From the IMG/VR virus record IMGVR_UViG_3300009605_000022: a DNA stretch of 20,000 nt; one strand, 5' to 3'. Below, piece by piece: positions 1 through 19,432 of the stretch. Position 1 is the first letter of the stretch, and every line of letters begins with the position of its first letter. The notes below the pieces were generated by a model, which saw only the letters and a program-made list of their open reading frames with translations, was not told the DNA's origin and did not search any database. Origin of the DNA: an uncultured virus (IMG/VR IMGVR_UViG_3300009605_000022) (Duplodnaviria > Heunggongvirae > Uroviricota > Caudoviricetes). Position numbers and translations under genes: made by a program.

Positions 1-50
1 TGACCGGCTCTCCAAGGAAGAGCTGTCTTAGTTTGAGTTGCTTTGCTCAT
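1..50 (-). CDS. 5' end of a leaderless ORF (MSKATQTKTALPWRAG...), runs off the window
   Basis: ATG at 50-48 lies 3 nt after the TTGGTAT element of the type-B promoter, the same geometry as the ORFs starting at 794 and 1590. Confidence 0.7.
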   Translation of the reverse strand, partial: MSKATQTKTALPWRAG

Positions 51-53
51 AAT

Positions 54-103
54 ATACCAAGGACACCACCCTATATAAAGCTTTTTTCACCCGAGTGGAA
101 AAA
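54..103 (-). promoter_or_regulatory. Type-B archaeal promoter (TTTATATA box 79-72, TTGGTAT initiator-like element) plus upstream palindrome TTTTTTCAC-CCGA-GTGGAAAAA
   Basis: Repeated at 798-846 and 1594-1641; the TATA box lies 22-29 nt upstream of the ATG with an A-rich BRE-like flank. Confidence 0.8.
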
Positions 104-154
104 TAAAAAATGCAACTTCACCTGAGGCTCCGCGTGTTTAAGAAACACCTCAGG
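101..154 (-). terminator. Hairpin CCTGAGG/CCTCAGG with inner GTGTTT/AAACAC, followed by a U-rich tract on the minus strand
   Basis: Inverted repeats 121-127/148-154 and 134-139/143-148; TTTTTTATTTTT downstream on the minus strand. Confidence 0.6.
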
Positions 155-540
155 GAGCGGTTGCCCGAGAGCACATTAATCTGCATAGGTAGTGCTACAC
201 GTGGGGTGTGACCTGTCGCCAGTCAAAAGGATATCCTTCACGAAAGGCGAACACAAGCATGAACAGGTGTGATACTCATAGCTTAACGGATTGATTCTAT
301 AACAGGGATAAAGTGATTCAAAGGTGATACATAATGTTAGCTACACGTCGTTCTAAAACTTAGATGCGCATCGACCGGAAAGGGATTGGGTCAGCACTGT
401 TCAGCTAGTATTTGTTATGTGAATGTCTCGTTGTTGCGTATGGTTCGATTTTGTTTCCTTGTCAGGTCACGTGTTACAGCTGATAACTGTAAGTGAGCGG
501 GTGCAATACTATTTTGCTATTTTCATCTCCCCGCTCTGTA
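110..540 (-). ncRNA. Candidate large structured ncRNA 1 (~430 nt)
   Basis: Sits directly behind the type-A promoter (541-569) with no credible ORF. Stems: 495-501/530-536, 474-479/487-492, long-range 208-215/463-470, 216-220/246-250, 227-238, 363-372, 170-174/192-196, and a terminal hairpin plus U tract. Confidence 0.65.
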
Positions 541-569
541 TTACCAATAGAGTGTCTCTATATAAGCTT
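541..569 (-). promoter_or_regulatory. Type-A archaeal promoter repeat (AAGCTTATATAG-AGACACTCTA-TTGGTAA on the minus strand)
   Basis: 29-bp repeat, 27/29 identical to the copies at 1420-1448 and 2170-2198; contains the dyad ATAGAG-TGT-CTCTAT. Confidence 0.8.
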
Positions 570-794
570 TTCTCCCATGGACTTTATCTCACTGACATAC
601 ACGTCACCGAGTTCAAAAGAACCATAAGTAAAATCTGATTTGACAGCGCAGAACCAACGGGCGTGTGGGTTCTTCGCTTCATTCTCAGCGTTTTGGTATT
701 TCTTTAATACTCTCCATTCAAAGCCACGTGGGCCAGTCCAGACCTCGTAAGGGTCATCTGTTTTGCGGGTTTTACCGCACATGTTTTTAGTCAT
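558..794 (-). CDS. Leaderless 78-aa hypothetical viral protein
   Basis: ATG 3 nt after TTGGTAT of a type-B promoter; protein-like composition (WRVLKKYQ...ARWFCAVKS...ELGDVY); stop lies inside the next TATA box. Confidence 0.85.
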   Translation of the reverse strand: MTKNMCGKTRKTDDPYEVWTGPRGFEWRVLKKYQNAENEAKNPHARWFCAVKSDFTYGSFELGDVYVSEIKSMGEKLI

Positions 795-797
795 ACA

Positions 798-846
798 ATA
801 CCAAGGGTGGGGGTCTATATAAAGCTTTTTTCACACGAGTGGAAAA
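798..846 (-). promoter_or_regulatory. Type-B promoter plus palindrome TTTTTTCAC-ACGA-GTGGAAAA
   Basis: ATACCAA 798-804, TATATAAA 816-823, palindrome 826-846. Confidence 0.8.
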
Positions 847-884
847 CCTCGAGGCGGGGGCAAAGGCCATAGCCCCCTAGAGGT
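846..884 (-). terminator. GC-rich hairpin ending the 1402-896 operon
   Basis: ACCTC/GAGGT (846-850/880-884) and GGGGGC/GCCCCC (856-861/872-877), followed by TTTT on the minus strand. Confidence 0.55.
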
Positions 885-895
885 GTCAAAACTGC

Positions 896-976
896 TTACG
901 AAATACGTCTGGCCTTTTTGATAATCTTATTCGTTCTCTTCTTCCAACCTCGTTCTAAGTAGGTATCGTAGCTCAT
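896..976 (-). CDS. 26-aa basic microprotein MSYDTYLERGWKKRTNKIIKKARRIS
   Basis: Hand-translated; ATGA overlap with the upstream ORF stop. Confidence 0.55.
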   Translation of the reverse strand: MSYDTYLERGWKKRTNKIIKKARRIS

Positions 977-1089
977 AAGCCACACCCACAGCAAGGTGCA
1001 TCTTCACACCCGCAGAGGACAATATAGTCTCCTGCTTCACTTATACCAGAGATGACCATGTCATCTAAAATATCTAAGATGCTCTTCAT
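973..1089 (-). CDS. 38-aa Cys-rich microprotein ending CGCEDAPCCGCGL
   Basis: Hand-translated; ATGA overlaps at both ends; metal-binding-like Cys cluster. Confidence 0.7.
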   Translation of the reverse strand: MKSILDILDDMVISGISEAGDYIVLCGCEDAPCCGCGL

Positions 1090-1223
1090 TTGGTCAACCC
1101 CAGCTTGATTGCTTTTAGTTGGTCCAATACTCCGGAATCAATTTTATTCTTTTGTATGGTTCTGCGTGCTACTCTCCTGAAGCGGAAAGCGTTTCTGGTG
1201 TCTTGTATTGTTTGTTCTAACAT
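1086..1223 (-). CDS. 45-aa basic microprotein MLEQTIQDTRNAFRFRRVARR...
   Basis: Hand-translated; AGGAG Shine-Dalgarno upstream; ATGA coupling downstream. Confidence 0.65.
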   Translation of the reverse strand: MLEQTIQDTRNAFRFRRVARRTIQKNKIDSGVLDQLKAIKLGLTK

Positions 1224-1237
1224 GTTTATCTCCTATC

Positions 1238-1402
1238 TTACCATACTCCACAGGCTATATAAAACCTTTCATCATCGAACCGTGGGTTCTCTGCTTCATA
1301 CTTTTTTGCGAAGTCTTTTGCTACCTGCATCTTTACCGATGCCGGCCATCCTGTTGTCCTTATTAGGTCTGCTGTTGCTTGAAAATCTTTTCTTGTGTTC
1401 AT
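1238..1402 (-). CDS. 54-aa viral protein MNTRKDF...NPRFDDERFYIACGVW
   Basis: Start moved to 1402 (GAGGA SD, downstream of a type-A promoter); the TRKDF...NPRFD..RF..AC pattern resembles small phage early proteins (from memory, not searched). Confidence 0.8.
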   Translation of the reverse strand: MNTRKDFQATADLIRTTGWPASVKMQVAKDFAKKYEAENPRFDDERFYIACGVW

Positions 1403-1419
1403 ATTTATTTCCTCGTATA

Positions 1420-1448
1420 TTACCAATAGGGTGTCCCTATATAAGCTT
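1420..1448 (-). promoter_or_regulatory. Type-A promoter repeat
   Basis: TTACCAATAGGGTGTCCCTATATAAGCTT, identical to 2170-2198. Confidence 0.8.
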
Positions 1449-1590
1449 ACCGGTGCCTCCACTTTCTCATTCTCACCAGCATACTTTGAGTTTGTAAACT
1501 CCTGCTGTAGAACTCTTCGAATTCCATTTTACCACCATATGATTTATAGTGATGCCAATTTGCTAACCTTTGTGTTTCGTATTTAGTCAT
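1447..1590 (-). CDS. Leaderless 47-aa protein MTKYETQRLANWHHYKSYGG...
   Basis: ATG 3 nt after TTGGTAT; the stop TAA overlaps the AAGCTT of the next promoter. Confidence 0.7.
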   Translation of the reverse strand: MTKYETQRLANWHHYKSYGGKMEFEEFYSRSLQTQSMLVRMRKWRHR

Positions 1591-1593
1591 AGT

Positions 1594-1641
1594 ATACCAA
1601 CGGGTGTGTCTATATAAAGCTTTTTTCACACGTGTGGAAAA
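1594..1641 (-). promoter_or_regulatory. Type-B promoter plus palindrome TTTTTTCAC-ACGT-GTGGAAAA
   Basis: ATACCAA 1594-1600, TATATAAA 1611-1618, palindrome 1621-1641. Confidence 0.8.
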
Positions 1642-1644
1642 GCT

Positions 1645-1980
1645 GGCGCCCCGCCGACTTAAAAGAAGCCGGTTATGGGGGTAACCTGCGTTTAGCTGTC
1701 CTACCATTATAGGCTGGCTTACTAAACTGAAGATGCGTCGCTACGTTTAACGCTCGGGCGGACTTATGCCTAAGGCCCTTCGCCATCACTTGTCAGGCGT
1801 CTCCTATTGTCCACGATGCTGGACAGTTTATTAGACTGACTCATACACTTGCCCTTTCCGTTGGGGGAACCTACTCCTTCGGCCTCCTTCTTACAGTGTT
1901 CGTGGACTCACGGAACATAATCTCTTTTGGGCTGAGTGTAATACTATTTTACTATTTTCATCGTCTCAGCCCGTTAGAGG
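1645..1980 (-). ncRNA. Candidate structured ncRNA 2 (~335 nt)
   Basis: GC-richer with no credible ORF. Stems: 1929-1936/1965-1972 (domain shared with ncRNA 1), 1897-1917, 1808-1825, 1757-1760/1781-1784, 1723-1729/1824-1830, and terminal hairpin 1649-1680 with a G-U pair on the minus strand. Confidence 0.6.
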
Positions 1981-1988
1981 TGCGTGGT

Positions 1989-2057
1989 TTATAATTTTCT
2001 TGTTGCGTATGATATTCCTACTAACCATGTTAGTAAGCTACTTTGGTATGTGTTCAT
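1989..2057 (-). CDS. 22-aa micro-ORF MNTYQSSLLTWLVGISYATRKL
   Basis: AGGAGG SD; TAATG overlap with the upstream stop. Confidence 0.45.
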   Translation of the reverse strand: MNTYQSSLLTWLVGISYATRKL

Positions 2058-2155
2058 TAGTCGCCTCCTTTTCTTATTAAGTATTGATAGTGAAATGGTC
2101 TACCGTTTTTCTTAAAGTCTTTTGCTAGCTTTGCCCAGTGTTGTCTTCGTGTCAT
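2057..2155 (-). CDS. 32-aa basic microprotein MTRRQHWAKLAKDFKKNGRPFHYQYLIRKGGD
   Basis: Start moved to 2155 (GAGGA SD, downstream of a type-A promoter). Confidence 0.65.
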   Translation of the reverse strand: MTRRQHWAKLAKDFKKNGRPFHYQYLIRKGGD

Positions 2156-2169
2156 GTTTTTCCTCTGTA

Positions 2170-2198
2170 TTACCAATAGGGTGTCCCTATATAAGCTT
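2170..2198 (-). promoter_or_regulatory. Type-A promoter repeat
   Basis: Identical to 1420-1448. Confidence 0.8.
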
Positions 2199-2289
2199 AT
2201 CCCCTGAACTCCGTCCAGCACTCCCAACATAGTTGAGAGTTGAAAAGTGTATAAGTCATGCATGCTGATTTATTACATTCTTCGCACAT
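2197..2289 (-). CDS. 30-aa CxxC...CxxC zinc-finger-like microprotein MCEECNKSACMTYTLFNSQLCWECWTEFRG
   Basis: GGTGAGG SD; two CxxC pairs; stop overlaps the promoter repeat. Confidence 0.65.
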   Translation of the reverse strand: MCEECNKSACMTYTLFNSQLCWECWTEFRG

Positions 2290-2290
2290 T

Positions 2291-2407
2291 TTATTCCTCA
2301 CCGGTCCAAAATGTTGCGAACATTTCAGTATCGCAATCTTCACATAGTCCACCGAATAATTCGATATCTTCCAAGCCACAGTCTTCACATTGTTGTTTTA
2401 ATTCCAT
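2291..2407 (-). CDS. 38-aa acidic zinc-finger-like microprotein MELKQQCEDCGLEDIELFGGLCEDCDTEMFATFWTGEE
   Basis: Hand-translated; GAGGA SD; CEDC occurs twice; downstream of the promoter variant at 2425-2453. Confidence 0.7.
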   Translation of the reverse strand: MELKQQCEDCGLEDIELFGGLCEDCDTEMFATFWTGEE

Positions 2408-2424
2408 TTGTATTCCTCGCTAAT

Positions 2425-2453
2425 ATACCAACGCGAGGTAACATATATTACTT
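2425..2453 (-). promoter_or_regulatory. Degenerate type-B-like promoter
   Basis: TTGGTAT element plus TAATATAT box at equivalent spacing. Confidence 0.55.
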
Positions 2454-2539
2454 TGGGTGGGGCCTATCGTCGTGAACCTCAAAATCCTAAACAGGGGTAT
2501 ATAAGGGGGCCAATCCCGCTCGCGTTTTTTGGTGAAATT

Positions 2540-2560
2540 TTTTTTCACACGTGTGGAAAA
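2540..2560. repeat. Fourth copy of the palindrome TTTTTTCACACGTGTGGAAAA
   Basis: Identical to 1621-1641. Confidence 0.9.
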
Positions 2561-2610
2561 ATTGCTGGGGGTTTATATACCCCCTTTTCCGGCGAATGGA
2601 CTATATATAC

Positions 2611-2751
2611 TTATAGCTGTTCGTGAATCTGGTCAACGATGTCATGAAGTATGTCTAACATATAACCACGAGTTAATACGTCATTATGACCATACTTATT
2701 TTTTTGCATCGAACCGATGTCAACTTTATCTAAATCAATTTCGAATTTCAT
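2611..2751 (-). CDS. 46-aa protein MKFEIDLDKVDIGSMQKNKYGHNDVLTRGYMLDILHDIVDQIHEQL
   Basis: Hand-translated; GAGGT SD; ATGA overlap with the upstream ORF. Confidence 0.7.
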   Translation of the reverse strand: MKFEIDLDKVDIGSMQKNKYGHNDVLTRGYMLDILHDIVDQIHEQL

Positions 2752-2975
2752 TTTTCTACCTCCTTTATTTTTCCTGCCATTTCTTGAACCTCTTTTAGAA
2801 CATACTTTGCAAAGTTATTCCAATCGGTTTTATTTCTTGAATCTTTTGCTAATGAATCCCATGCCATTATAGTGGACCTGAGATTATTGTAAGCGTTAGC
2901 TTCGTTTCTGATTTGCTCATTGCTTAATGCTGGGGCTTCTTCTGCCCTCTTGATGTAGGTGATTAACATGCTCAT
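2748..2975 (-). CDS. 75-aa helical hypothetical protein
   Basis: ORF track; coupled to both neighbours; GGGGGTG SD. Confidence 0.75.
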   Translation of the reverse strand: MSMLITYIKRAEEAPALSNEQIRNEANAYNNLRSTIMAWDSLAKDSRNKTDWNNFAKYVLKEVQEMAGKIKEVEK

Positions 2976-2977
2976 GT

Positions 2978-3166
2978 TTACACCCCCAATTCATAGAAGC
3001 AGTCAAGGCATACCTTGTAGCCTCTTGCCCTGTGGGCTTGAACTGCATCGTTGCAACACTCGCACATATCTTGTGCGTTGTTTAATTCTTTCATGCCTTG
3101 CTCGATGGCCATATCTAATTGGTGCATCATGCTGTCTAACTCGGTTATTATTTCGTTGTTGTTCAT
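2978..3166 (-). CDS. 62-aa coiled-coil plus CxxC...CxxC zinc-ribbon protein
   Basis: Start moved to 3166 (GAGGA SD after GTAATACAGAG, the same initiator context as type-A promoters); CECC...CLDC. Confidence 0.75.
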   Translation of the reverse strand: MNNNEIITELDSMMHQLDMAIEQGMKELNNAQDMCECCNDAVQAHRARGYKVCLDCFYELGV

Positions 3167-3179
3167 ATTTGTTTCCTCT

Positions 3180-3212
3180 GTATTACTCATAGCGACCTAC
3201 TTAATAAAGGTT
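3180..3212 (-). promoter_or_regulatory. Promoter variant (AACCTTTATTAA...GAGTAATAC)
   Basis: TATA-like box at the same distance from GTAATACAGAG as in the type-A copies. Confidence 0.5.
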
Positions 3213-3266
3213 TCGTTGGGAGGGGTATACCCCCCCTACCCTAGGCCCCTACTGGGGGTGCCCCCC

Positions 3267-3581
3267 TTAGGCCCTCCTGTGCCCAGTGTTTGCCATACCT
3301 TGACATTCTGGCTCAGAGCCATATTGTCGGTAGTGTTCAGCAACCAAAGAAGCTTCATGTTCTAAAGCTTCCCATGGGTTTGAAAATTCTTTCAATACTA
3401 TCATGGATACATCATGACCTTTTTTAGGCCTGTGTTTACTAAGTCTTGACTGGGGGTCTTGAGTTAGTCCGTAATAGATTGCATCCTTATCTATTCCTTG
3501 TGTATAATCGACGTCAAAGAAGTGATAACTTGTCTTTTCTGTCTGTCTGGCTAGTTTGTATATATAGTAGTTGTTGTTCAT
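3267..3581 (-). CDS. GIY-YIG family nuclease-like protein
   Basis: YYIYKL...IYYGLTQDPQSRLSKH...EALEHE matches the GIY...YIG.T...R..H...E pattern. Confidence 0.7.
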   Translation of the reverse strand: MNNNYYIYKLARQTEKTSYHFFDVDYTQGIDKDAIYYGLTQDPQSRLSKHRPKKGHDVSMIVLKEFSNPWEALEHEASLVAEHYRQYGSEPECQGMANTGHRRA

Positions 3582-3595
3582 ATTACTTACCTCTT

Positions 3596-3628
3596 ACCTA
3601 TACAGGGGCAACACCCTATATAAGCTTA
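3596..3628 (-). promoter_or_regulatory. Type-A-like promoter for the GIY-YIG gene
   Basis: AAGCTTATATAGGG on the minus strand; GAGGT SD downstream. Confidence 0.65.
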
Positions 3629-3670
3629 AGTGTTTTAAAGGAGGGGGTATATAAGTAAATCCAAGCAAAT

Positions 3671-3790
3671 GGAAAAAAACGCAAAAAAAATGACAAAAAA
3701 ATGCAAAAAATCGCGCAAAAAATGCGCTAAAAAAACGCCAAAAACGCGCCAATGTCGCGCGCTATAAATTTATTAAAAATCGCGCTAATG
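3671..3790. repeat. Phased A-tracts separated by short CG-containing linkers
   Basis: A5-8 tracts start at 3673, 3683, 3695, 3705, 3717, 3729 and 3740. Confidence 0.8.
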
Positions 3791-4113
3791 TATATATTAT
3801 CTTATTATATTATCTTTTTCAGTATACCCCCGTCTAAAAAAATCATGCCCCCACCTAAACACACAGGCGCCTAGGGGTTTAAACAAATCGAGCCATTTTT
3901 TGAAAGCACTAAATAAGAATATACTATAAGCACTGTGTTTAAACTATATATCGCTAAGTATCTCTTGCATTATTAATCAAGCTCTTTTAACCATGCTCTA
4001 TTAGTCTCTCTTACGCGCGTAGGATAGCCAGTGAACTGAGAAGCAAGCTCTACATACCACAACTCTTATATACTCTGAGGTAGTATAATTATATACAAAA
4101 AAGGAAACTAACT

Positions 4114-4599: not shown

Positions 4600-5675
4600 T
4601 GGAGCTTAATATGATTGAGATAAAACATTTAATGAAAGACTCTTTAGTGCCTTTGGCTTTAGAGAGAGGAGGAACTGTAAAGCCTCTTATAATACCAGCA
4701 GCCGAGACCGGTGGGTTAGGATTATGCAACCCGTCGATATACCACGTACCTAAGACATCTAAGTACTTGATTAATGTGCGTAATGTATCTTATTACTTAC
4801 ACCACTGTGAAGGAGACCAGAAGTACCAAACACCATGGGGTCCTTTGAATTATGTAAGACCAGATAACGATGCATACCTAAGAACTAAGAATTTTATATG
4901 CGATTATAATTTAGGACAGGGTAAGATAACCAAGCATAAACTATTAGATACATCTAAATTTAAGAAAGAACCTGAGTGGGACTTTGTAGGATTAGAGGAT
5001 GGACGTATAGTGGAGTGGGAAGGTAAAACATATTTAACCGGCGTTAGGCGCTACGCGCCTGATGGCAAAGGAAGGATGGTGCTGTCTGAAATTGAGATTA
5101 CTAAAAAAGGAGTCAAGGAAGTTGGTCGATATGTGATGGACTCTCCTAATGGTCCTGAAGAATACTGTGAGAAGAACTGGATGCCTATCTTAGATATGCC
5201 ATTCCATTATGTTCATACAGCTAACCCACTTAAGATTGTCAAAGTAGATATAAATGAAAAGTGGAAACATAACCCAATAAAGTATAGGTGTCCTGTTAAC
5301 GTAGTACACGAAGGTAAAGAAGAGATACCTCTACAGTTAGACCCTCGTGGCAGTTCACAACTTGTACCATGGAAGGATGGTTATCTATGTGTAACACATG
5401 AATGTGACTACTGGCATAATGAGAAAAATGACAGAGACGCACATTACTATCACAGGTTTATATACTGGGACAAAGAATGGAACCTAAAAGGATATTCACA
5501 ACCGTACAAGTTTATGGATGGTAGAATAGAATTCTGTTGTGGTATGGCAGGTCACCCTGATGCACAGTGTGATGACATGCTTATAACATATGGCTTCCAA
5601 GATAATTCTGCTTATGTACTACACATAAAAGAAGACCATATACTAGAGTTATTGGAGCATTCAAATAAGGAATGA
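4599..5675 (+). CDS. GH130/GH43-like five-bladed beta-propeller glycosidase or phosphorylase
   Basis: NPSI, GLEDGR, EKNWMP, RGSS, IEFCCG, ITYGFQD motifs. Confidence 0.75.
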   Translation: MELNMIEIKHLMKDSLVPLALERGGTVKPLIIPAAETGGLGLCNPSIYHVPKTSKYLINVRNVSYYLHHCEGDQKYQTPWGPLNYVRPDNDAYLRTKNFICDYNLGQGKITKHKLLDTSKFKKEPEWDFVGLEDGRIVEWEGKTYLTGVRRYAPDGKGRMVLSEIEITKKGVKEVGRYVMDSPNGPEEYCEKNWMPILDMPFHYVHTANPLKIVKVDINEKWKHNPIKYRCPVNVVHEGKEEIPLQLDPRGSSQLVPWKDGYLCVTHECDYWHNEKNDRDAHYYHRFIYWDKEWNLKGYSQPYKFMDGRIEFCCGMAGHPDAQCDDMLITYGFQDNSAYVLHIKEDHILELLEHSNKE

Positions 5676-7297
5676 ACAATTACTGGAAAACCACAGCGTG
5701 GCCTACGCTAGAGATAACAACCTCAATTCCTAAAGCAGGATGCGTAGTTGATTGTGTCTTTTGTCCACAACGAGTCTTACAGAAAGTATGGGATGCTGAG
5801 AAGTTCACTACTAACGCAGCTAGAACTATGAAGCTCGAGGACTTCAAGATGGTAATAGATAAATTACCTAAAGAAGTGAGGATTACTTTCTCAGGGTTCA
5901 CCGAACCTTGGTTAAATAAAAATACTACTGACATGTTGTTATATGCACATGAGCAGGGACATAGGGTATCCGTATTTACTACAGCAGTAGGTATGCAACT
6001 CAAAGACGTTGAAAGAATAAAAGACATTCCATTCTGTGGTGGACCTAATGGTGGGTTTACTTTACACTTACCTGATACAGAAAGGTTAGCCAAACATCCA
6101 GTAAATAAGAAGTACATTAAAGTAGTTCAAGCACTTAAAGACGCCAATATCAATAATTTTCAAACGATGTCTATGGGCATGGTTCATGAAGAGGTGGTAG
6201 ATATTTATCCAGACGAAGAAGTCAATAAATATGAAATGTGGCACAGAGCAGGTAACCTATTAGGTGAAGCTCAACTTAAACCAGAAGTAAAAGAAGTATG
6301 GGATAGATTTAAATCAATAATGCATGAGGATGAAATGACATGTGGTTGTGTAGAAGATTTATATCATAATATCTTATTACCTAATGGTGAAGTATCTTTA
6401 TGTTGTATGGATTATAATTTAGAAGAGATACTTGGTAATTTATATACTGAAGAGTATGACGACATACTACCACCACCAAATACTACATATGATATGTGTA
6501 GCAGGTGTGAGAATGGTGTTCCACCTATGAAACTAAGTGGATGGGAAGAAGAGATAACAATAAACCCACAAGGAACATCACCAGAGAGTAATGCACCTAT
6601 TCTCGTCAAAGAAGAAACAATAGATAGATTAGATTATAACAATTACTTTGTTCCAGAAGCTATGGTACAATATTTAGATAATAATAAAGTTCCAGAGCAT
6701 GAAATAATAAACTGGGCTAAGAATAACTTCTGTCATAACGAAAAGACGTTTGTAGACATAGGAGCACATGTTGGTACATATACATGGACACTAGCACCGT
6801 TCTTTAGTAGTACAGTTAGTTTCGAACCTACTAAGTCAACATATAATTATTTATGTGGAAACGTAATGCTTAAGAACCTGTCAAAGAAAGTTACAACTCA
6901 TAACGTAGCTTTAGGTGCAGAAGAAACTACCATGATGTTTTACGAAAGAAGTAAAGATGGTGGTACTAATGGATTGAACTTAGATTACAACAATGGTAAA
7001 TGGTTAGGTAATGACCAAGACCACTACGAAGTAAAAGTAAATAGATTAGATGATTATAAACTAATGAATGTAGGATTTATAAAAATAGATGTAGAAGGCT
7101 ATGAGCTTGCAGTATTAAAAGGAGCAACCACAACATTACAGAACAATGGTTACCCTCCAATACTATTCGAAAGCTGGCCTGCTAACAATCCAGAGAATAC
7201 TTTATTGAAAGATAATTTATTTAATTACTTATTCGCATTAGGATACAAAATAGGAAGTACACCACACCCCGAGATATTTATAGCAAGGAAAGATTAA
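5672..7297 (+). CDS. Radical SAM/SPASM-like domain fused to an FkbM-family methyltransferase
   Basis: CVVDCVFC, SGFTEP, VSLCCMDY..LGN..CSRC; then FVDIGAHVG, FEP, IKIDVEGYELAVLKGA. Confidence 0.85.
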   Translation: MNNYWKTTAWPTLEITTSIPKAGCVVDCVFCPQRVLQKVWDAEKFTTNAARTMKLEDFKMVIDKLPKEVRITFSGFTEPWLNKNTTDMLLYAHEQGHRVSVFTTAVGMQLKDVERIKDIPFCGGPNGGFTLHLPDTERLAKHPVNKKYIKVVQALKDANINNFQTMSMGMVHEEVVDIYPDEEVNKYEMWHRAGNLLGEAQLKPEVKEVWDRFKSIMHEDEMTCGCVEDLYHNILLPNGEVSLCCMDYNLEEILGNLYTEEYDDILPPPNTTYDMCSRCENGVPPMKLSGWEEEITINPQGTSPESNAPILVKEETIDRLDYNNYFVPEAMVQYLDNNKVPEHEIINWAKNNFCHNEKTFVDIGAHVGTYTWTLAPFFSSTVSFEPTKSTYNYLCGNVMLKNLSKKVTTHNVALGAEETTMMFYERSKDGGTNGLNLDYNNGKWLGNDQDHYEVKVNRLDDYKLMNVGFIKIDVEGYELAVLKGATTTLQNNGYPPILFESWPANNPENTLLKDNLFNYLFALGYKIGSTPHPEIFIARKD

Positions 7298-8711: not shown

Positions 8712-9685
8712 TGACAGAAACTAAATGGACAGCGAGTCACATGAGGCTCAGCCCAAGTAAGATTAATACTTACATGAAATGCCCCCGAGAGTTCTACTAT
8801 AACTATATAGCTAAACTCCCACAAAAGAAAACAATACATTTGTTCAGAGGAACATTAGTACACAAAGTCTTAGAAGAACTTTTTAAGCAACAATTTAAAA
8901 CTTTACCACAATGGGAGAAAGGAGAACCTAAGGTATGGGTACAAGAACAATTCGAAAAAGGATGGGAAGAAAAGATAGCTAAACACAAATGGTTATGGGA
9001 CGTACACACTGATTTAGAAATGGATGCTATGTATAAAGAGACAGAAGCACTATTACAAAACTTTGTAGACTCTGTAGATAAGAAACTAACAGAAATGGTT
9101 GAATGGAAGATATTCCGTAATAAACAACAAGCATGGAATGCAGTAGCACCTAAGTATGCTGAGAAGTGGGTTAAGTCTCACGAGTATGCAATCGTAGGAG
9201 TTATAGATGTTGTATGTAATGATTTCGATGGTGGCACTACACTACTTGATTATAAGACATCAAAAAGATATGGACCATACCTACCAGAAGAATATTACAG
9301 GCAGTTAATTATTTATGCCTTTTTATATACGTTAGAGATGGGAGAGATGCCTAACTTTGTAGGTGTTAACTATCTTCGTTTTGATGATACATTCTTTGTT
9401 AAGGTAGGACAAAAGGAACTTGATGAAGCTAAAGACTTAATTAAGATGGTACACGATTGTATCAAAGAACGTCAAGAGTATGAAGACAGATATGAACAGA
9501 AACCACAGAACTTATGTAAGTGGTGTTCTTTCCATAAATCTCAAGGTGGACCCTGTGATGCTGAAGTTCCAAAATGGGAACCAAAGTTCAAAAAACGTAA
9601 AAAAGAAAATTATGCAGATATATCAAAAGATTCTAAATTGAACATAGAATTAGAAAATCAGGACCAGTTTCCAGACTACGACTAA
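8711..9685 (+). CDS. PD-(D/E)XK nuclease, Cas4/RecB(AddB)-like, with four Fe-S cysteines
   Basis: SPS...CPR, GTLVH, GVID...DYKT, QLIIY, CKWC...C. Confidence 0.85.
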   Translation: MTETKWTASHMRLSPSKINTYMKCPREFYYNYIAKLPQKKTIHLFRGTLVHKVLEELFKQQFKTLPQWEKGEPKVWVQEQFEKGWEEKIAKHKWLWDVHTDLEMDAMYKETEALLQNFVDSVDKKLTEMVEWKIFRNKQQAWNAVAPKYAEKWVKSHEYAIVGVIDVVCNDFDGGTTLLDYKTSKRYGPYLPEEYYRQLIIYAFLYTLEMGEMPNFVGVNYLRFDDTFFVKVGQKELDEAKDLIKMVHDCIKERQEYEDRYEQKPQNLCKWCSFHKSQGGPCDAEVPKWEPKFKKRKKENYADISKDSKLNIELENQDQFPDYD

Positions 9686-11340: not shown

Positions 11341-11489
11341 ACGACTTTGAGATGAAACAAATGAGAGCTGAGCTAGATGGACTACATGAGACAGTAGAAG
11401 TATTGTTAGCATGTATAGGCAAAGATATGTACGCAGAGCACGACTGCTGTTGTGATGAGAGCGGTTGCTGCGTAACCGAGGAAGAATAA
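11337..11489 (+). CDS. 50-aa protein with a Cys/acidic tail (HDCCCDESGCC)
   Basis: Hand-translated; GGAG SD; ATGA overlap. Confidence 0.7.
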   Translation: MNDFEMKQMRAELDGLHETVEVLLACIGKDMYAEHDCCCDESGCCVTEEE

Positions 11490-11491
11490 AC

Positions 11492-11716
11492 ATGGTAGAA
11501 GAACCAGATTTTATGAATAAACAAAAGAAGGCTTTTGGTATTTACAAAGGAGATGGTAGTGGAGAAGTTAACACAAATCCTGAACAAGGAACACCCAATG
11601 CAGATTGGTGTGAGAAAGTTAATTCATTACCAACCTATAGTGCACCTAATGGTAACAAGGAAACTTACACCGACAAGGACTATAGATTTAAACCAAAAGA
11701 CGATTACATAGACTAG
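11492..11716 (+). CDS. 74-aa hypothetical protein
   Basis: ORF-track frame; start moved to ATG 11492 (GAGG SD). Confidence 0.7.
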   Translation: MVEEPDFMNKQKKAFGIYKGDGSGEVNTNPEQGTPNADWCEKVNSLPTYSAPNGNKETYTDKDYRFKPKDDYID

Positions 11717-11726
11717 GATTGATTCT

Positions 11727-11846
11727 ATGGCTTATGTAAAGAAAAACAAAAACGGGGTCCCCCGAAAGAAACCTACCAAGCGTAGGGTGAAGAAAGGTGA
11801 GAAGGCCTTCCGTGGAAAAGACGGAAAACTCAGGAAAAAGAAATAA
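11727..11846 (+). CDS. 39-aa extremely basic protein MAYVKKNKNGVPRKKPTKRRVKK...
   Basis: Hand-translated; TAATG overlap with the next gene. Confidence 0.7.
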   Translation: MAYVKKNKNGVPRKKPTKRRVKKGEKAFRGKDGKLRKKK

Positions 11847-12106
11847 TGGCAATAAGTAATAAACAAGTAGCAAAAACAAACAAGAAAGAAGGAATCGATA
11901 AAACTCTAACAATGAGGAAATCAGGTTCTGGAGAAAAAGTCTTCAGCCACGTTGGCGGTAAGACCCATGCTTTAGAAAAGAATCCTATATCTAAAGAAAC
12001 AGCTCTTAAACAAATTAGAGATGTAACAGAAACAGAGATAGCAGATAGAAAGCACCACGGTCACCACATAGGTAAAAGACAAGCAACCAAAGATACAAGG
12101 AAGTAA
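11846..12106 (+). CDS. 86-aa basic, His-containing protein
   Basis: ORF track; coupled start. Confidence 0.75.
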   Translation: MAISNKQVAKTNKKEGIDKTLTMRKSGSGEKVFSHVGGKTHALEKNPISKETALKQIRDVTETEIADRKHHGHHIGKRQATKDTRK

Positions 12107-12108
12107 TA

Positions 12109-12285
12109 ATGATATTTAGAAATGGTTCAGAAAAGAAACATGAATGTCTTTCACATGACCACTTTATGGATGAAGATGGTAAATCTTGGAGCGGTATGAA
12201 TACAGCTGTTCCTAAGACACGTGAAGCATTGATGAAAAAGAAAGGACCAATTATAGGTAGGTCACCAGCAGGAGTTGATGAATAA
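12109..12285 (+). CDS. 58-aa protein MIFRNGSEKKHECLSHDHF...
   Basis: Hand-translated; fills the gap with a TAATG overlap. Confidence 0.7.
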   Translation: MIFRNGSEKKHECLSHDHFMDEDGKSWSGMNTAVPKTREALMKKKGPIIGRSPAGVDE

Positions 12286-12452
12286 TGGTAGCTAAGAAGA
12301 AAGGACTGTATGCAAACATACACGCCAAAAGAAAGCGCATTAAGAAAGGCTCTGGTGAGAAGATGAAGAAGAAAGGAGCTAAAGGACGACCTACAGCTAA
12401 ACAATTTAAAAAAGCAGCAAAGACTGCTAAGAAAAGAGGCAAGAAGAAATAA
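12285..12452 (+). CDS. 55-aa Lys-rich protein MVAKKKGLYANIHAKRKRIKKGSGEKM...
   Basis: Hand-translated; TAATG overlaps on both sides; GLYANIHAKRKR resembles a small-protein family of marine phages (from memory). Confidence 0.8.
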   Translation: MVAKKKGLYANIHAKRKRIKKGSGEKMKKKGAKGRPTAKQFKKAAKTAKKRGKKK

Positions 12453-12739
12453 TGGCGCCTGCAAAGAAGAAGGATGCCAAATTAACAAGAGCGGGAGTAT
12501 CAGGTTATAACAAACCTAAGCGAACGCCTAAACACCCAAAGAAATCACATGTAGTAGTTGCTAAAGAAGGTGGTAAGACTAAACTAATTAGATTTGGTCA
12601 ACAAGGAGTAACTACAGCAGGTAAGAAAACAGACAAGAAATCTATGGCCCGAAGGAAGAGTTTTAAAGCGCGCCACGCTAAGAATATCAAGAAGGGAAAG
12701 ATGTCTGCTGCATATTGGGCTGATAAAGTTAAATGGTAA
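12452..12739 (+). CDS. 95-aa basic viral protein (RFGQQG...RRKSFKARH...SAAYWA..KW type)
   Basis: ORF track; motif recalled from marine virus hypothetical proteins. Confidence 0.8.
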   Translation: MAPAKKKDAKLTRAGVSGYNKPKRTPKHPKKSHVVVAKEGGKTKLIRFGQQGVTTAGKKTDKKSMARRKSFKARHAKNIKKGKMSAAYWADKVKW

Positions 12740-12853
12740 GCTTTATATACTCAGGGGTGCTAATTATTATAGGCTCTCTCGTTAGGGCCAAGGCTTCATA
12801 GGATAGGCATACGCCAGTGTCCAAGAAGGAGCCCACAAAAAAAGGAGACATAT
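12738..12853 (+). promoter_or_regulatory. Promoter AAGC-TTTATATA followed by a structured ~80-nt leader
   Basis: TATA box 12742-12749; hairpins 12772-12789 and 12792-12833; AGGAG SD. Confidence 0.65.
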
Positions 12854-13303
12854 ATGTCGAACAATACAACAAATGAAACAAATGATAACTCAACAGTACT
12901 AGATACTAATGAGACAGCAGATGGTAATTTATCTGCTATTATCGAGAGTGTAGAAGAATCAGGACTTTTGGATAGTCTAATGGATGAACCGTTATTGGTA
13001 GGACTCGTTGCAGTAGTATTAGGTCTTGGTGCTTACATAGCATACACAGTACCAGCTGTTAAAGCTTTAGTATTTAAATACTTAAAGAATAACGAAGCCG
13101 AACTTATGGAACTATTAGATAAAAACTTAACAAAAGTTCAGATGAAGGCATTCGAGAAGCTGGATGAAGCAGCTCAGAAGCACGTAAAGGACTCAATGGT
13201 CAAAAATGTTTTAGTCACCGCATGGGATGAGAAAGACGATGAATTAGCCGCATTGGTTAAATCAAAAGTCAAATCAGCTCTTGACGAAGGCAAAGCACTT
13301 TGA
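12854..13303 (+). CDS. Single-pass membrane protein with a sequon-rich acidic N-terminus
   Basis: NNT/NET/NST/NET/NLS sequons, TM segment LLVGLVAVVLGLGAYIAY, helical C-terminus. Confidence 0.75.
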   Translation: MSNNTTNETNDNSTVLDTNETADGNLSAIIESVEESGLLDSLMDEPLLVGLVAVVLGLGAYIAYTVPAVKALVFKYLKNNEAELMELLDKNLTKVQMKAFEKLDEAAQKHVKDSMVKNVLVTAWDEKDDELAALVKSKVKSALDEGKAL

Positions 13304-13650
13304 ACGTAGAGGAATACGAGCAGCGGTTACGTCAGCGAGTAGGAGAAGGGGAATATGAACGTCATAAAGAACTTGTACGCTTGCTGGCTCGCAATCTTGC
13401 TCTTGAAGACATACTGTGGGAAGAAATTCTTGTATCTATTCGGGATGTTAACAAAAGAACAGAGCTACTGCGACAGAGAAATTCAATCGTTCGTGACATA
13501 CATACGGAGTTCCGAGCGTTAAATATAGAAGTGCCTACAGTGGCAGAAGAAAGAACAGCAGACTTTGCATCTTTCTTAGGAGATTTAGGAAATGACGACG
13601 ACCAAGCTACCTCAGGGGGTAGCACCGCCAAGTCCAGTGAAGAGTCATAA
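13300..13650 (+). CDS. Putative terminase small subunit
   Basis: Helical 116-aa protein immediately upstream of and overlapping terL; call is positional. Confidence 0.55.
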   Translation: MNVEEYEQRLRQRVGEGEYERHKELVRLLARNLALEDILWEEILVSIRDVNKRTELLRQRNSIVRDIHTEFRALNIEVPTVAEERTADFASFLGDLGNDDDQATSGGSTAKSSEES

Positions 13651-15307
13651 AAGCACCATTACGGCATCAATAACCGGAACTGGGCTCCATGATTCAAGAG
13701 AGTTAGAGAATATATTCGAAAAGTGTAGACAAAGTCCTGACAAAATGTTGAAGTTGGTCAGAGCTTTTTGCGAAACGTACTTAATGGACCAAAAGCAACG
13801 ACCTCTTAAACTTAGACCTTTACAGGAAGATATCATTGTAAATGCATTGACCTATCCCGAGAATGGAAAGCAACGTAAGTTAGCAATCCTAGCGCCAAGG
13901 GGCAGTGGGAAATCATTCGCACTTTCTGTAGCTGTATGTATCTATATGTTTTTTAATAGATTTAGAGACTTAGTGTTTATCTTGGCTCCAACTGAGGACC
14001 AAGCAGCTCTAATATTCAATTACTGTTATCGTCATTTTGCTGATAACAAATTCTTGGATAGCTTAGTAGACGGGTATCGTTTTCATAACAAGCCCAATAT
14101 AACACTTAAGGGGGGCACTGTAATGCGCAGAGCTCCATTAGCGCCTACTAATCAAGGACAAGCTATACGTGGACAACATCCAACTTTCTTAATAGTTGAC
14201 GAGTCTCCGCTTATAGATGACCGATTGTTCATTGACAATGTAGAGCCTGCTATTGTTTCTAATAAAGCTCCTTTTATAAACTTGGGTACGCCTAAGTCAA
14301 AGGAGAATCATATGTATCGTTATCTTTATGATGACGCTTATGAACAGACATTTACACGCATGCATTATACATGGAAGGATGCCATTAAAAAGGGCAACGC
14401 TTATGACCCACCGTACACCGAGGAGGAGATGCTCGACAAAATGATAGAGTGGGGAGAGGATTCCATATATTGGAGAACTGAATATGAATGCGAATTCGTT
14501 GAAAGTGTATCTAATGTATTCCAACCAGAAAAGGTGAAAGCATGTTATGAGGATTACGAACTTACTAAAATCGATGGAGAAGTCAGAGGGCAGGGAGGCA
14601 GTAATATCACTGTTGCTGTTGACATTGGCAAATCTGTTAATTCTACTGTTATTAGTGCATGGCGTCTTGAAAAGTCTGATGCCGAGAATATTGCAAGAAT
14701 GGTATACTGTGAAGAAATTAATGCACGAACTGGCGGACACGACATACCATATCAGCGTAGACGTATCATGGACGTGGCTCTGGGTCTTAGTGCCGATAGG
14801 GTTATTATTGACGCTACTGGTATTGGTGGTGCGATTGAACAGGACATCAGAAGAGGATGTGTAGATAATGGTATTCACTTTATTGGTTTTGTTTTTACGG
14901 GCGGTCCTAAAGGAACTAAAACACAGATGTACAGGGATTACCAATCGTTTATCCAACAAGGAAGAGTAAAAGTACCTAATCCTAAACTTTTAAATAAAGA
15001 CGACGCAAAAGTAATAAACAAATGGACCAGAGAACATTTCGATTTAGAATACACTATGGATGCAGCTCAGAAGACTGAAAGGATATCTGCACCTAGTAAT
15101 AAACATGATGATTACTGTGATAGCTCAGCAATGGGTATACACGCAACTTTGAGTATGTTACCATCTCAAGGAACATTTGCTTCAGCGTCTGTAAACAGAC
15201 CTAGAAGAGTTGAAAGAGCGGAAAGACCAAATCACACTGGAGGTCCACTTTTTGCAACAACAAGACGTAGAAATCAGCTAAATAAGCCTAGTTATACCAA
15301 TTTGTGA
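13592..15307 (+). CDS. terL: Terminase large subunit
   Basis: LRPLQ adenine-binding motif, Walker A APRGSGKS, Walker B FLIVDE, GTP coupling motif, nuclease acidic motifs AVDIG, IDATG, HDDYCD. Confidence 0.95.
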   Translation: MTTTKLPQGVAPPSPVKSHKSTITASITGTGLHDSRELENIFEKCRQSPDKMLKLVRAFCETYLMDQKQRPLKLRPLQEDIIVNALTYPENGKQRKLAILAPRGSGKSFALSVAVCIYMFFNRFRDLVFILAPTEDQAALIFNYCYRHFADNKFLDSLVDGYRFHNKPNITLKGGTVMRRAPLAPTNQGQAIRGQHPTFLIVDESPLIDDRLFIDNVEPAIVSNKAPFINLGTPKSKENHMYRYLYDDAYEQTFTRMHYTWKDAIKKGNAYDPPYTEEEMLDKMIEWGEDSIYWRTEYECEFVESVSNVFQPEKVKACYEDYELTKIDGEVRGQGGSNITVAVDIGKSVNSTVISAWRLEKSDAENIARMVYCEEINARTGGHDIPYQRRRIMDVALGLSADRVIIDATGIGGAIEQDIRRGCVDNGIHFIGFVFTGGPKGTKTQMYRDYQSFIQQGRVKVPNPKLLNKDDAKVINKWTREHFDLEYTMDAAQKTERISAPSNKHDDYCDSSAMGIHATLSMLPSQGTFASASVNRPRRVERAERPNHTGGPLFATTRRRNQLNKPSYTNL

Positions 15308-18325: not shown

Positions 18326-19432
18326 ATGCCAACAGACGCAACCGGTGGAATACTAACTAGCCTAAATACAGGTGCAGTCAATGGAGGTCTAGGAGAACGA
18401 GTTCTTGTAGACTACAAAGATGTAATAATGGACTACAAGGTCACAGACCTTCCAGTTATGCAATTCTTTGCTGACCCAATGACGACCGATACAGGCGGTA
18501 ATATTGATATTACTTTCGCAAGACCTAGCATGAAGCTAGAACAAATAAACGAGGGAACAACCCCTGAATACCAACACACTAAACTAAGGTCCGAGAGAAT
18601 CGCAGTTAAAGAGTGGGGTATAGCAATAGGTGTTACCCGAAGAATGATTGAAGATTCAAGGTTCAACGAAGTTGAAATGGCTTTGAATGAAGCACGCAGA
18701 GCTGTAGACAGACACTTGACAGAACATGTTGTTAAAGTAGTATTTGGTTCAGACGCTGCCGATGCAACATTTGGAACTATTGCAATTACCGCTGCAACCA
18801 CAGAAGCAACAATCACAACGTTCGCAACTAACCCATCATCAGGTTTCCTTGGTGACGGAATAGTAGCAGCAGATGTAGACAGTGGAAGCTCACGTGTTAA
18901 TTCGTATGGTAATGAAACCGACGCAAGATTAATCCGTAAGATGTACCACAACAGTGCCGCAGGAGCAGCAGCAGGTAATTTCGCTTTAGCTGATGTCCCT
19001 AAAGGTATTGACCACATCGCTACGCACGGATACAACGCAACTCACATTTTCTTATCCCCAGCACATTATCACAAATTATTAAACATTGGTGATTTCGTAA
19101 CGGCCTTCACGACCGCTAGTGGTGGAGAAGCAGGAGATGCAGCAAATCCAACAACTACTCTCAACAACCCTGAGAACCCTTTCAACACAACCGCTAAGAC
19201 TGGAAAAGTCGGAAGCTTATATGGACTTGATGTTATAGTCAACGCCTATGTACCTTCAGACAGATTCGGTGTTTTCGACTTGACTGTTAAGCCAATGGCT
19301 TACGTAGAAAGACGCCCATTGACTGTAGAAGAAGCCAATCCCGGATTCGGAATTGTCGGCTCTTACATGTCTATGAGATATGGTTTAAAGATTGTTAGAC
19401 CAGAAACTGGATTTATCGTAATTAACGCTTAG
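18326..19432 (+). CDS. Major capsid protein, HK97 fold
   Basis: INEG, KEWGIAIGVTRRMIEDS, HIFLSP, GSLYGLDVIVN, RYGLKIVRPE; position. Confidence 0.92.
   Translation: MPTDATGGILTSLNTGAVNGGLGERVLVDYKDVIMDYKVTDLPVMQFFADPMTTDTGGNIDITFARPSMKLEQINEGTTPEYQHTKLRSERIAVKEWGIAIGVTRRMIEDSRFNEVEMALNEARRAVDRHLTEHVVKVVFGSDAADATFGTIAITAATTEATITTFATNPSSGFLGDGIVAADVDSGSSRVNSYGNETDARLIRKMYHNSAAGAAAGNFALADVPKGIDHIATHGYNATHIFLSPAHYHKLLNIGDFVTAFTTASGGEAGDAANPTTTLNNPENPFNTTAKTGKVGSLYGLDVIVNAYVPSDRFGVFDLTVKPMAYVERRPLTVEEANPGFGIVGSYMSMRYGLKIVRPETGFIVINA

Follow-up and report, generated by a model that had tools for sequence, protein, structure and literature searches.

At the left end of a 20,000-nucleotide stretch of DNA from an uncultured tailed virus (IMG/VR record IMGVR_UViG_3300009605_000022; the whole stretch is called the window below), the minus strand carries an array of small genes and two structured non-coding RNAs (ncRNAs), punctuated by four copies of a palindrome. 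On balance, the array is read here as a chain of miniature transcription units, in which the palindrome would be the operator of a dimeric DNA-binding protein and would stand between the end of one unit and the promoter leading the next. As such, the array would follow a compact regulatory grammar, namely (i) a terminator, (ii) an operator palindrome, (iii) a TATA box with its B recognition element (BRE), (iv) a TTGGTA motif at a fixed distance, and (v) the ATG of a leaderless gene.

The palindrome and the units it bounds

The palindrome reads TTTCCAC-N4-GTGAAAA and its four sites, numbered P1 to P4 in minus-strand order (Table 1), are spaced by 744, 795 and 919 bp. Searched with the pattern TTTTYCACNNNNGTGRAAAA and at most one mismatch, the 20-kb window holds 4 matches against 0.00 expected, and none of 200 shuffles has any; no palindrome was found in the other 46 kb of the same virus, which are covered by a second IMG/VR fragment (G001), 100% identical to the window from position 8975 on and excluding the array. 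The sites and spacings named in the original prediction, which had been made by a model from the sequence, were therefore reproduced, with none expected by chance. Relatives were collected with an exact 20-base string from the window, found at 15 loci in viral contigs, and with patterns of ncRNA 1, which added 17 viral loci and 53 metagenome loci; the core of ncRNA 1 is present in 84 loci (56 distinct versions), i.e., 66 loci after removal of redundancy. Palindromes are kept in 60 of these 66 non-redundant marine loci, in line with the conservation that had been expected of the repeats, and the whole module of ~50-60 bp is likewise conserved in 60 of the 66, in the same order. Four palindromes are counted in 17 of the 25 loci covering the array from end to end, five in another 5 and none in 3. 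Each of the two complete relatives (one of 67,299 bp, with terminal repeats, the other of 69,348 bp) contains exactly 4 palindromes, all in the array, in one orientation and with none outside it, the reversed control pattern giving 0.

Variation was scored over 143 distinct copies of the palindrome from related loci. All 143 have TTTCCAC as left arm; as right arm, 123 have GTGAAAA, 18 GTGGAAA and 2 GTGTAAA, and the centre takes 23 different tetramers, leaning to nCGn. The half-sites are inverted and one helical turn apart. On the downstream side, a TATA element stands 20-26 nt past the palindrome start in 124 of the 143 copies, the palindrome centre lying ~42 bp ahead of the leaderless ATG and against the BRE; on the upstream side, the preceding 48 nt fold at a mean of -15 kcal/mol, 4.7 below shuffles. 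Read in the sense strand, the arms form a C.A mismatch in 123 of the 143 copies. Because the arms are near-fixed, the centre is variable and compensatory change amounts to zero, the palindrome is better read as a putative docking site of a protein than as an RNA stem of the kind found in the promoter-early stem-loop (PeSL) elements of T4-type phages. In loci L010, L012, L013, L015, L018, L022 and L023, the first palindrome has just ahead of it 2-4 tandem copies of a GTGAGAAA(C)-type repeat, in the place taken by the GGGGGTATATAAACCCCC hairpin in the lineage of the window.

Followed along the minus strand, the units have the composition that had been predicted. The open reading frame (ORF) 558-794 stops inside the TATA element of the promoter behind it and ORF 1447-1590 stops beside such an element, GC hairpins stand ahead of the palindromes, and the units are promoter/terminator cassettes whose small cargo is unrelated from one to the next and includes two genuine structured RNAs. 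Repeat families A and B, both promoter-like, are also real (CTATATAARCTT has 6 matches against 0.47 expected), but their alternation is not strict, as the array has more TATA promoters (1256-1263 and 2498-2505) as well as a TATA-like element at ~1975-1990. What had been called periodicity comes down to a spacing of 514-1048 bp per unit (median 692 over 142 spacings in relatives). No continuation of the palindromes was met past the left window edge, to which the original prediction had proposed to extend the scan: contig L072, which is the same virus (99.87% identity over 3812 nt) and extends 1226 nt past that edge, shows two more small genes, namely gene 10 (79 aa) and gene 11 (110 aa), and no fifth palindrome.

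Promoter geometry

From P2, P3 and P4, the minus strand runs straight into AAAAGC-TTTATATA-G, 9-10 further bp, TTGGTA, 4 nt and ATG, which places TTGGTA 10-11 bp after TATATA and the ATG 20-22 nt after the TATA. The box is preceded by AAAAGC or AAAACC, and the A of the ATG by T or C. P1 is followed by a conserved 130-nt leader with a TATA element, and not by a direct promoter. A census of 164 distinct promoter contexts shows how regular this arrangement is: the spacer measures 10 or 11 bp in 160 of them, and in 126 an ATG stands 3-4 nt past TTGGTA and opens, in all 126 cases, an ORF of at least 25 codons. The remaining promoters are led by a Shine-Dalgarno (SD) sequence (31), run into an ncRNA hairpin (4) or are unclassified (3).

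The ATG that follows TTGGTA is taken as the start codon because the first codons vary between relatives as codons do (ACT/AGC, GGT/GGG, ATG/TTA). With that ATG as the start, the TTTATATA box is therefore centred near -25, a pyrimidine and a purine occupy -1 and +1, and an A-rich stretch lies upstream. Archaeal core promoters are laid out in this manner, with the centre of the TATA box ~25-27 bp ahead of the start, a BRE rich in A and a pyrimidine/purine pair at -1/+1, and the same layout is found at the promoters of the array. The A promoters share the core and continue with GAGG(A)n-ATG or, at 537, with a hairpin. The same BRE/TATA, without TTGGTA or palindrome, also precedes the genes at 9723 (ATG 22 nt past the box) and 15350. 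In relatives, nearly every small ORF has a promoter of its own, overlapping the preceding stop codon. At operon ends, TATATA cores clamped by runs of G and runs of C (e.g., GGGGGTATATAAACCCCC) recur, i.e., at 2567-2584, 2495-2510, 3215-3245 and 3633-3651, and could be both hairpin terminators and two-way TATA elements.

A proposed chain of miniature transcription units

In relatives, the genes after the array lead into a CobS-like gene, and the array is therefore taken as the head of the minus-strand block of small genes, which would most likely be transcribed first. The miniature units would be read by the host RNA polymerase, starting at unit-leading promoters made of an A-rich BRE, the TTTATATA box, TTGGTA after 10-11 bp and, 3-4 nt further on, the ATG of a leaderless gene. 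Internal promoters with the same core would drive further small genes, either leaderless or with GAGG at the very 5' end, as well as the two ncRNAs. Each unit would end in a GC hairpin with a short T run, the palindrome following directly behind with its centre near -42 of the next promoter. A dimeric protein, viral or from the host, would bind there and act jointly on three to five unit-leading promoters, shield the units from read-through, or do both. Since promoters with the same core work without any palindrome, both inside the units and in three palindrome-free lineages, the palindrome would be an add-on, and shut-off or insulation is favoured over activation on the same grounds. The 50-60-bp module, because it is repeated, may in addition be the site at which genes and whole units are gained, lost and swapped among relatives.

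A number of observations weigh against an operator in such a chain. No cognate binding protein of the palindrome was identified among the array proteins searched, nor was any DNA-binding family found among them with Pfam and PHROGs, which returned for 11 + 10 small proteins only a weak zinc ribbon, a threshold-level GIY-YIG match and GP88, none of them informative on the host takeover or anti-defence of the original prediction. AlphaFold models of gene 11 and gene 10 reach low to moderate confidence (predicted local distance difference test, pLDDT, 71.7 and 61.0, respectively), and the gene 11 model, the only one searched with Foldseek against the PDB, had no fold match at E <= 0.001. Of the 143 palindrome copies, 125 are asymmetric, an asymmetry that a symmetric dimer would not require, and 19 have no adjoining promoter. 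Moreover, the palindrome always lies at a unit end, where a role in termination is possible, and it appears dispensable, given that three related lineages keep their promoters without any palindrome. As for transcription, the early timing is deduced from position, the RNA contigs presented below show neither strand nor true ends, and their coverage comes without a separate silent control stretch. With regard to the host, the TATA and TTGGTA blocks allow a second reading, TTTATA-16/17-TGnTAnnnT, the polymerase and the terminase are only 21-24% identical to genes of a cyanophage, a Salinibacter phage and a halovirus with the capsid unmatched, and the sole binned relative is a 4.3-kb contig (L097) whose capsid is 57% identical and whose bin is labelled uncultured Dehalococcoidales bacterium.

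Gene order and junctions among relatives

The most serious of the other explanations, although an unlikely one, is that the repeats are chiefly recombination modules as in PeSL, the plasticity driven by exchange being the selected function. Unit gain and gene swaps speak in its favour. Four loci (L048 at 1628-2260, L064, L047 and L069) have an extra palindrome-bounded unit carrying a 210-aa cysteine-rich ORF with a Pfam GP88 match (E = 2e-23); when L048 is compared with L068, homology ends 31 nt after the start of one palindrome and resumes exactly at the next, so that the indel is bounded on both sides by the palindrome-plus-promoter repeat. In L047, L094 and L031, the zinc-ribbon gene 2 and the family-0 gene are found in changed units, and the junctions of this swap, as seen in L047 against L013, lie in promoter repeats. 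Over all pairs, 603 of 2365 ends of high-scoring segment pairs fall in repeat zones, which make up 13.4% of the region, against 316 expected. Out of 1794 gaps of at least 100 nt, the left boundary coincides with a TATA element in 32% and the right in 42% (16% at random), and both do in 15.7%. The enrichment of junctions at the repeats is thus 2-2.7-fold; as the events share ancestry and the counts are not independent, no probability is attached to it.

The gene order tells against free exchange. The consensus comprises (i) an upstream operon with families 1, 9, 6 and 4, (ii) a palindrome, the zinc-ribbon gene 2 and further on ncRNA 1, (iii) a palindrome and families 0 (13) 3 7, (iv) a palindrome, family 5 and ncRNA 2, and (v) a palindrome and genes 10 and 11. 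It is found in 38 of the 45 loci spanning ncRNA 1, the others being three palindrome-bearing loci with gene 2 in the next unit, three palindrome-free loci with a permuted order and one unclear case. Besides, 58-68% of the gap boundaries lie away from any repeat, conserved regulatory DNA flanking variable genes would give the same pattern without special recombination, and homologous exchange needs neither near-fixed palindrome arms nor a fixed distance to the TATA element. The repeats are preferred junctions and the array is not freely shuffled. The PeSL-like shuffling of the original prediction is partly supported, by the unit gain and the gene swaps at repeats and not by the order at large; breakpoints in repeats were seen in the L048/L068 indel, in the L047/L013 swap and as an overall enrichment, with most boundaries elsewhere.

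The question of the host

The promoter geometry appears to fit an archaeal host better than a sigma-70 promoter would, and, judged from this architecture, the host is probably archaeal; of the archaeal virus of the original prediction, the geometry is the part that stands and the one line of evidence on the host. A bacterial host, with the repeat as a sigma-70 promoter made of a -35 TTTATA, a 16-17-bp spacer and an extended -10 TGnTAnnnT, is rather improbable. In a sigma-70 scan, which returned 15 sites against 9.5 +/- 2.6 in shuffles, two early promoters passed with a TG before the second hexamer, and these were the only early promoters flagged; the unit ends with hairpin and T run resemble intrinsic terminators, and there is the capsid gene in the Dehalococcoidales-labelled bin. 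The start codon, however, directly follows the would-be -10 hexamer in the 126 leaderless promoters of the census, always opening an ORF, and a sigma-70 start ~7 nt downstream would therefore fall inside the gene. Such a start would also cut off the GAGG of the SD-led promoters, and the 5' hairpin of the ncRNA begins 1 nt past the start predicted from archaeal geometry. The binning of a 4.3-kb contig is weak evidence in itself; L097 was the only match of the capsid profile among species-representative genomes.

Other searches bearing on affiliation gave little. The proteins of the virus are remote from those of every cultured virus. It had no DNA match and no capsid match in the phage collection, the neighbours of its proteins in the ESM Atlas are all viral, the genome contigs scanned for palindrome plus TATA gave 0 matches, and PDB sequence searches with three unidentified ORFs gave nothing usable. 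A Rad51/RadA family gene is said to be typical of marthaviruses (PMC7678222). Membership in this group is not supported, because such a gene is absent from 3 of 3 records. If the host is archaeal, the array would be, haloviruses aside, among the clearest examples of early promoters tagged by an operator in an archaeal virus, and would supply ready-made parts for transcription studies in marine archaea.

The GIY-YIG-like gene and a possible role in RNA

Upstream of the array lies a gene for a 104-aa GIY-YIG-like protein, and the palindrome might be its recognition or cleavage site, in a homing-like or integron-like exchange array; the chance of this is small. The gene was found in each of the 28 informative loci with palindromes and in none of the 4 informative loci without them, G002, a palindrome-free 20-kb fragment (28% complete), having neither. 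In both complete relatives it precedes the first palindrome by ~0.8-1.1 kb, and the motif residues are conserved in 28 distinct members. Still, the palindrome-free loci stem from only two independent lineages, both represented by fragments, and the evidence of co-occurrence is thin; the Pfam match is at threshold (22.5 bits, cut-off 22.6), a DNA-binding domain is not recognisable in the protein, the ORFs scanned include no tyrosine or serine recombinase and the gene order is mostly fixed. The link is a cheap lead on how the array is remodelled: if the nuclease recognises the palindromes, a passive repeat would become an active exchange site.

An equally small chance is given to the palindrome acting in RNA or as a terminator, i.e., as part of a hairpin with T run that ends the upstream unit and has no protein partner of its own. 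The palindrome always comes after a stable hairpin, a run of 3-6 T ends in its left arm, 19 copies have no promoter behind them as said above, and the 33-nt sense RNA folds at -7.0 and -7.6 kcal/mol. These folds, however, have z-scores of only -1.5 and -2.1, and the arms show no compensatory change, the left being invariant and the right varying at one position, next to the frequent C.A mismatch. A transcript ending at the T run would exclude the right arm, and the terminator scan placed a hairpin with T run beside only 1 of the 4 palindromes of the window.

Least credible is the boldest proposal, namely that a marine archaeal virus actively exchanges cassettes through this array, in which the GIY-YIG nuclease would recognise the asymmetric palindromes bounding the units and drive the gain, loss and swap of promoter-equipped cargo, including two abundant structured RNAs acting on the host; if true, the array would do the work of integrons or homing cassettes with other components.

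Two structured RNAs

Both ncRNAs of the array are real. ncRNA 1, aligned in 43 distinct sequences, has ten helices with 98.4% of cells paired and 28 of 50 pairs compensatory; none of 500 column shuffles reaches the observed pairing or covariation, and partners slid by 1-3 columns are paired in 35-47%. For ncRNA 2 (27 sequences), 96.3% of cells are paired and 25 of 83 pairs are compensatory, the slid controls giving 29-47%. In the window, neither RNA has a match at gathering score to the 4227 families of Rfam 15, and a search of positions 1-4100 at E <= 5 returned only three chance-level matches (E 0.67-4.5). To our knowledge, large structured RNAs of (putative) archaeal viruses are essentially undescribed; in the limited literature searched, there was no earlier description of such arrays or RNAs in archaeal viruses.

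In the lineage of the window type, each RNA is preceded by a hairpin with a conserved loop of ~30 nt, the stem of which is spelled in at least 9 paired ways over 25 distinct copies; likeness between the two ncRNA regions is claimed for this loop only. In the other lineage, ncRNA 1 comes directly after the stop codon of a small ORF. The hairpin loop (495-536 and 1929-1972; 25 copies) contains a five-codon frame, ATG AAA ATA GYA AAA TAG (MKI[A/V]K), which a variant keeps as ATG ATA ATA GCA AAA TAA, as well as an inner GCAA/UUGC stem covarying to GUAA/UUAC. A micro-ORF and a processing signal are both conceivable readings; a C/D-box reading was ruled out, no D box being conserved. Within ncRNA 1 itself, an invariant hairpin loop GAAGGAGUA (alignment A2 columns 51-59, ~1866-1874 on the minus strand) contains the SD-like AAGGAG in 43 of 43 sequences.

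Metatranscriptome contigs from four runs of four studies were aligned to the 4-kb region. The region of ncRNA 2 is covered in all four runs, at 164-473 in three studies and, in the fourth (X16, contig 445-788), only at its 5' end (445-473); one RNA contig of 266 nt is identical to 207-472. ncRNA 1 is covered in two of the four runs (contigs 1741-1904 and 1677-1812). Three of the runs have hardly any coverage elsewhere in the 4 kb, apart from a contig at 1159-1406 in one of them (X15), and 2949-4000 is without RNA contig in all four, such bare stretches being no evidence of silence. In unit 1, an RNA contig of a relative extends to 2470 in the leader. Two covariation-supported RNAs that stand outside the RNA family libraries dominate the metatranscriptome content of this region. 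ncRNA 2 measures ~310 nt by its contig ends and ncRNA 1 ~230-270 nt. The contigs of three studies end at 472/473, one running into the sequencing adapter, 3 nt before the closing helix, and on account of these ends the 5' hairpin of ncRNA 2 seems to be removed, which is a weak hint. The circular or deleted cassette junctions proposed earlier were looked for through the RNA contigs only: two joints, 528->1990 and 532->1988, came up, and both were mapping artefacts and not deletion junctions, the ncRNA 1 hairpin of a relative matching both copies of the loop.

Comparison with known systems

The array works like two known kinds of repeats, namely the class I repeats of HF2 and the PeSL elements, and is a member of neither; it has no match in its repeats to the HF2 motif compared (beta), no sigma-70 promoter and no T4 core. 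The class I intergenic repeats of HF2 and other haloferacalesviruses are ~58 bp long, combine a TATA-type promoter with further conserved motifs, occur in several copies ahead of early and middle genes with sequence and position kept among relatives, and are proposed to hold binding sites of viral regulators (Russ et al., 2021; PMC8707807). The array resembles them as extended promoter-bearing repeats of a tailed virus with conserved positions in relatives and presumed regulator sites. It differs in its extra motif, a clean 7-N4-7 palindrome upstream of the BRE joined to a unit end with hairpin and T run; in its far smaller units (0.5-1 kb), with leaderless genes at a fixed distance; in the structured RNAs carried by two units; and in its marine host. 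Of the alpha, beta and gamma motifs of HF2, only beta, TCTTTAAGTC, was compared, and its 5 one-mismatch matches in the window (2.5 expected) include none in the repeats.

PeSL elements of T4-type phages were reportedly described by Arbiol et al. in 2010. In a later article, they are presented as composites of terminator and early promoter located at indel junctions (Comeau et al., 2014; PMC4122927). The array shares with them composite repeats of stem-loop terminator and promoter flanking small variable genes; junctions in the repeats were seen in the two indel and replacement events examined in detail, with 58-68% of boundaries elsewhere overall. Unlike PeSL, its promoter is of the BRE/TATA type and not sigma-70, a separate palindrome with near-fixed arms stands between terminator and promoter, and gene order is mostly fixed; the virus, with a tape-measure gene and no T4 core genes, is not T4-like.

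Operators of dimeric regulators at archaeal core promoters are exemplified by the GvpE upstream activating sequence, Ptr2 and TFB-RF1 and, for repressors, by F55 of SSV1. Like these, the palindrome has inverted half-sites one helical turn apart and a fixed place next to BRE/TATA; unlike these, it has no known cognate protein and is reused at three to five promoters of one array and nowhere else in the genome. Phages also carry large structured RNAs such as ROOL and GOLLD. The two ncRNAs are likewise covariation-supported, multi-helix, phage-borne, abundant in RNA samples and of no known function, but they are shorter, lie within an early-gene array, and are either served by a TATA-type promoter of their own or placed after a small ORF. 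In contrast to integron cassette arrays, no adjacent tyrosine recombinase was found in the scanned ORFs and the cassettes carry their own promoters.

Features of the array, genome context and spread

The window is that of a tailed virus, with small minus-strand ORFs across 1-3600 and plus-strand genes from 4114 on (Table 1).

Table 1. Features of the array, in minus-strand order, and of the plus-strand block of the window
Feature	Position	Strand	Remarks
Upstream operon ending at P1	2611-3627	-	promoter 3603-3627, GIY-YIG-like gene, three small ORFs
GIY-YIG-like gene, 104 aa	3267-3581	-	
Palindrome P1	2540-2561		first in minus-strand reading; after hairpin 2567-2584; no promoter directly adjoining
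Conserved non-coding leader of unit 1	2408-2535	-	TATA 2498-2505, second degenerate TATA, TTGGTA flanked by inverted repeat
Four-cysteine zinc-ribbon gene, 38 aa (family 2)	2291-2407	-	
CxxC...CxxC small ORF, 30 aa (family 1-like)	2197-2289	-	read from sequence
Promoter A of unit 1	2163-2204 (TATA 2188-2195)	-	SD-led; drives 32-aa ORF 2057-2155
5' hairpin of ncRNA 1	1929-1972	-	stem variable, ~30-nt loop conserved
ncRNA 1	1642-1915	-	ten helices; terminal hairpin and T run merging into P2
Palindrome P2	1621-1641		adjoins promoter B of unit 2
Promoter B of unit 2	1588-1620 (TATA 1611-1618)	-	leaderless ATG 1588-1590; drives ORF 1447-1590, 47 aa
Promoter A of unit 2	1413-1454 (TATA 1438-1445)	-	SD-led; drives ORF 1238-1402, 54 aa
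Third promoter of unit 2	1255-1269 (TATA 1256-1263)	-	drives ORFs 1086-1223 (45 aa) and 973-1089 (38 aa)
GC-rich hairpin closing unit 2	849-885	-	just before P3
Palindrome P3	826-846		adjoins promoter B of unit 3
Promoter B of unit 3	792-825 (TATA 816-823)	-	leaderless ATG 792-794
78-aa ORF (family 5)	558-794	-	kept in 50 loci; RNA contig over 445-788
Promoter A of unit 3	537-575 (TATA 559-566)	-	TTGGTA 542-547, predicted +1 at 537
5' hairpin of ncRNA 2 precursor	495-536	-	loop as in 1929-1972; outside the abundant RNA species
ncRNA 2	104-473	-	core closed by helix 470-463/215-208; 3' domain, T-rich end at 104-116
Palindrome P4	82-103		adjoins promoter of gene 10; last palindrome of the array
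Promoter B of gene 10	48-81 (TATA 72-79)	-	TTGGTA 55-60, ATG 48-50
Gene 10, 5' part	1-50	-	leaves the window; 79 aa in L072
Radical-SAM/FkbM methyltransferase fusion	downstream of 4114	+	gene annotation
TPR protein	downstream of 4114	+	gene annotation
PD-(D/E)XK exonuclease	downstream of 4114	+	gene annotation
Large terminase	13592-15307	+	
Portal	between 4114 and window end	+	
Major capsid protein	18326-19432	+	
Collagen-like fibre	plus-strand block	+	

Fragment G001 adds tail genes, including a 1183-aa tape measure, and a minus-strand block coding for a class II ribonucleotide reductase, a family B DNA polymerase, Hsp20, a squalene/phytoene-synthase homologue, RecU, a pyrimidine-dimer glycosylase and CobT- and CobS-like proteins. 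Among the ORFs scanned over the 66 kb of the virus (window and G001), none was recognised as coding for an RNA polymerase, an integrase or a tyrosine or serine recombinase, and searches for tRNA genes were negative. The capsid protein has 927 relatives among metagenome proteins, and near-identical DNA was found in 14 runs of several studies; the virus group is abundant in the ocean and has no cultured member.

In the plus-strand block, a single 541-aa ORF (5672-7297) joins a radical-SAM/SPASM domain to an FkbM-type methyltransferase. Downstream of window position 19503 (G001 11408-13761, and L002-L008), the region of the collagen-like fibre gene recurs ~10 times with 68-80% identity. Between the two strands' gene blocks, the array adjoins a divergent intergenic region (3600-4113), in which six phased A-tract repeats (AAAAAAATGC-like), 10-13 bp apart, stand at 3663-3751 and could mark bent DNA, an origin or a control region.

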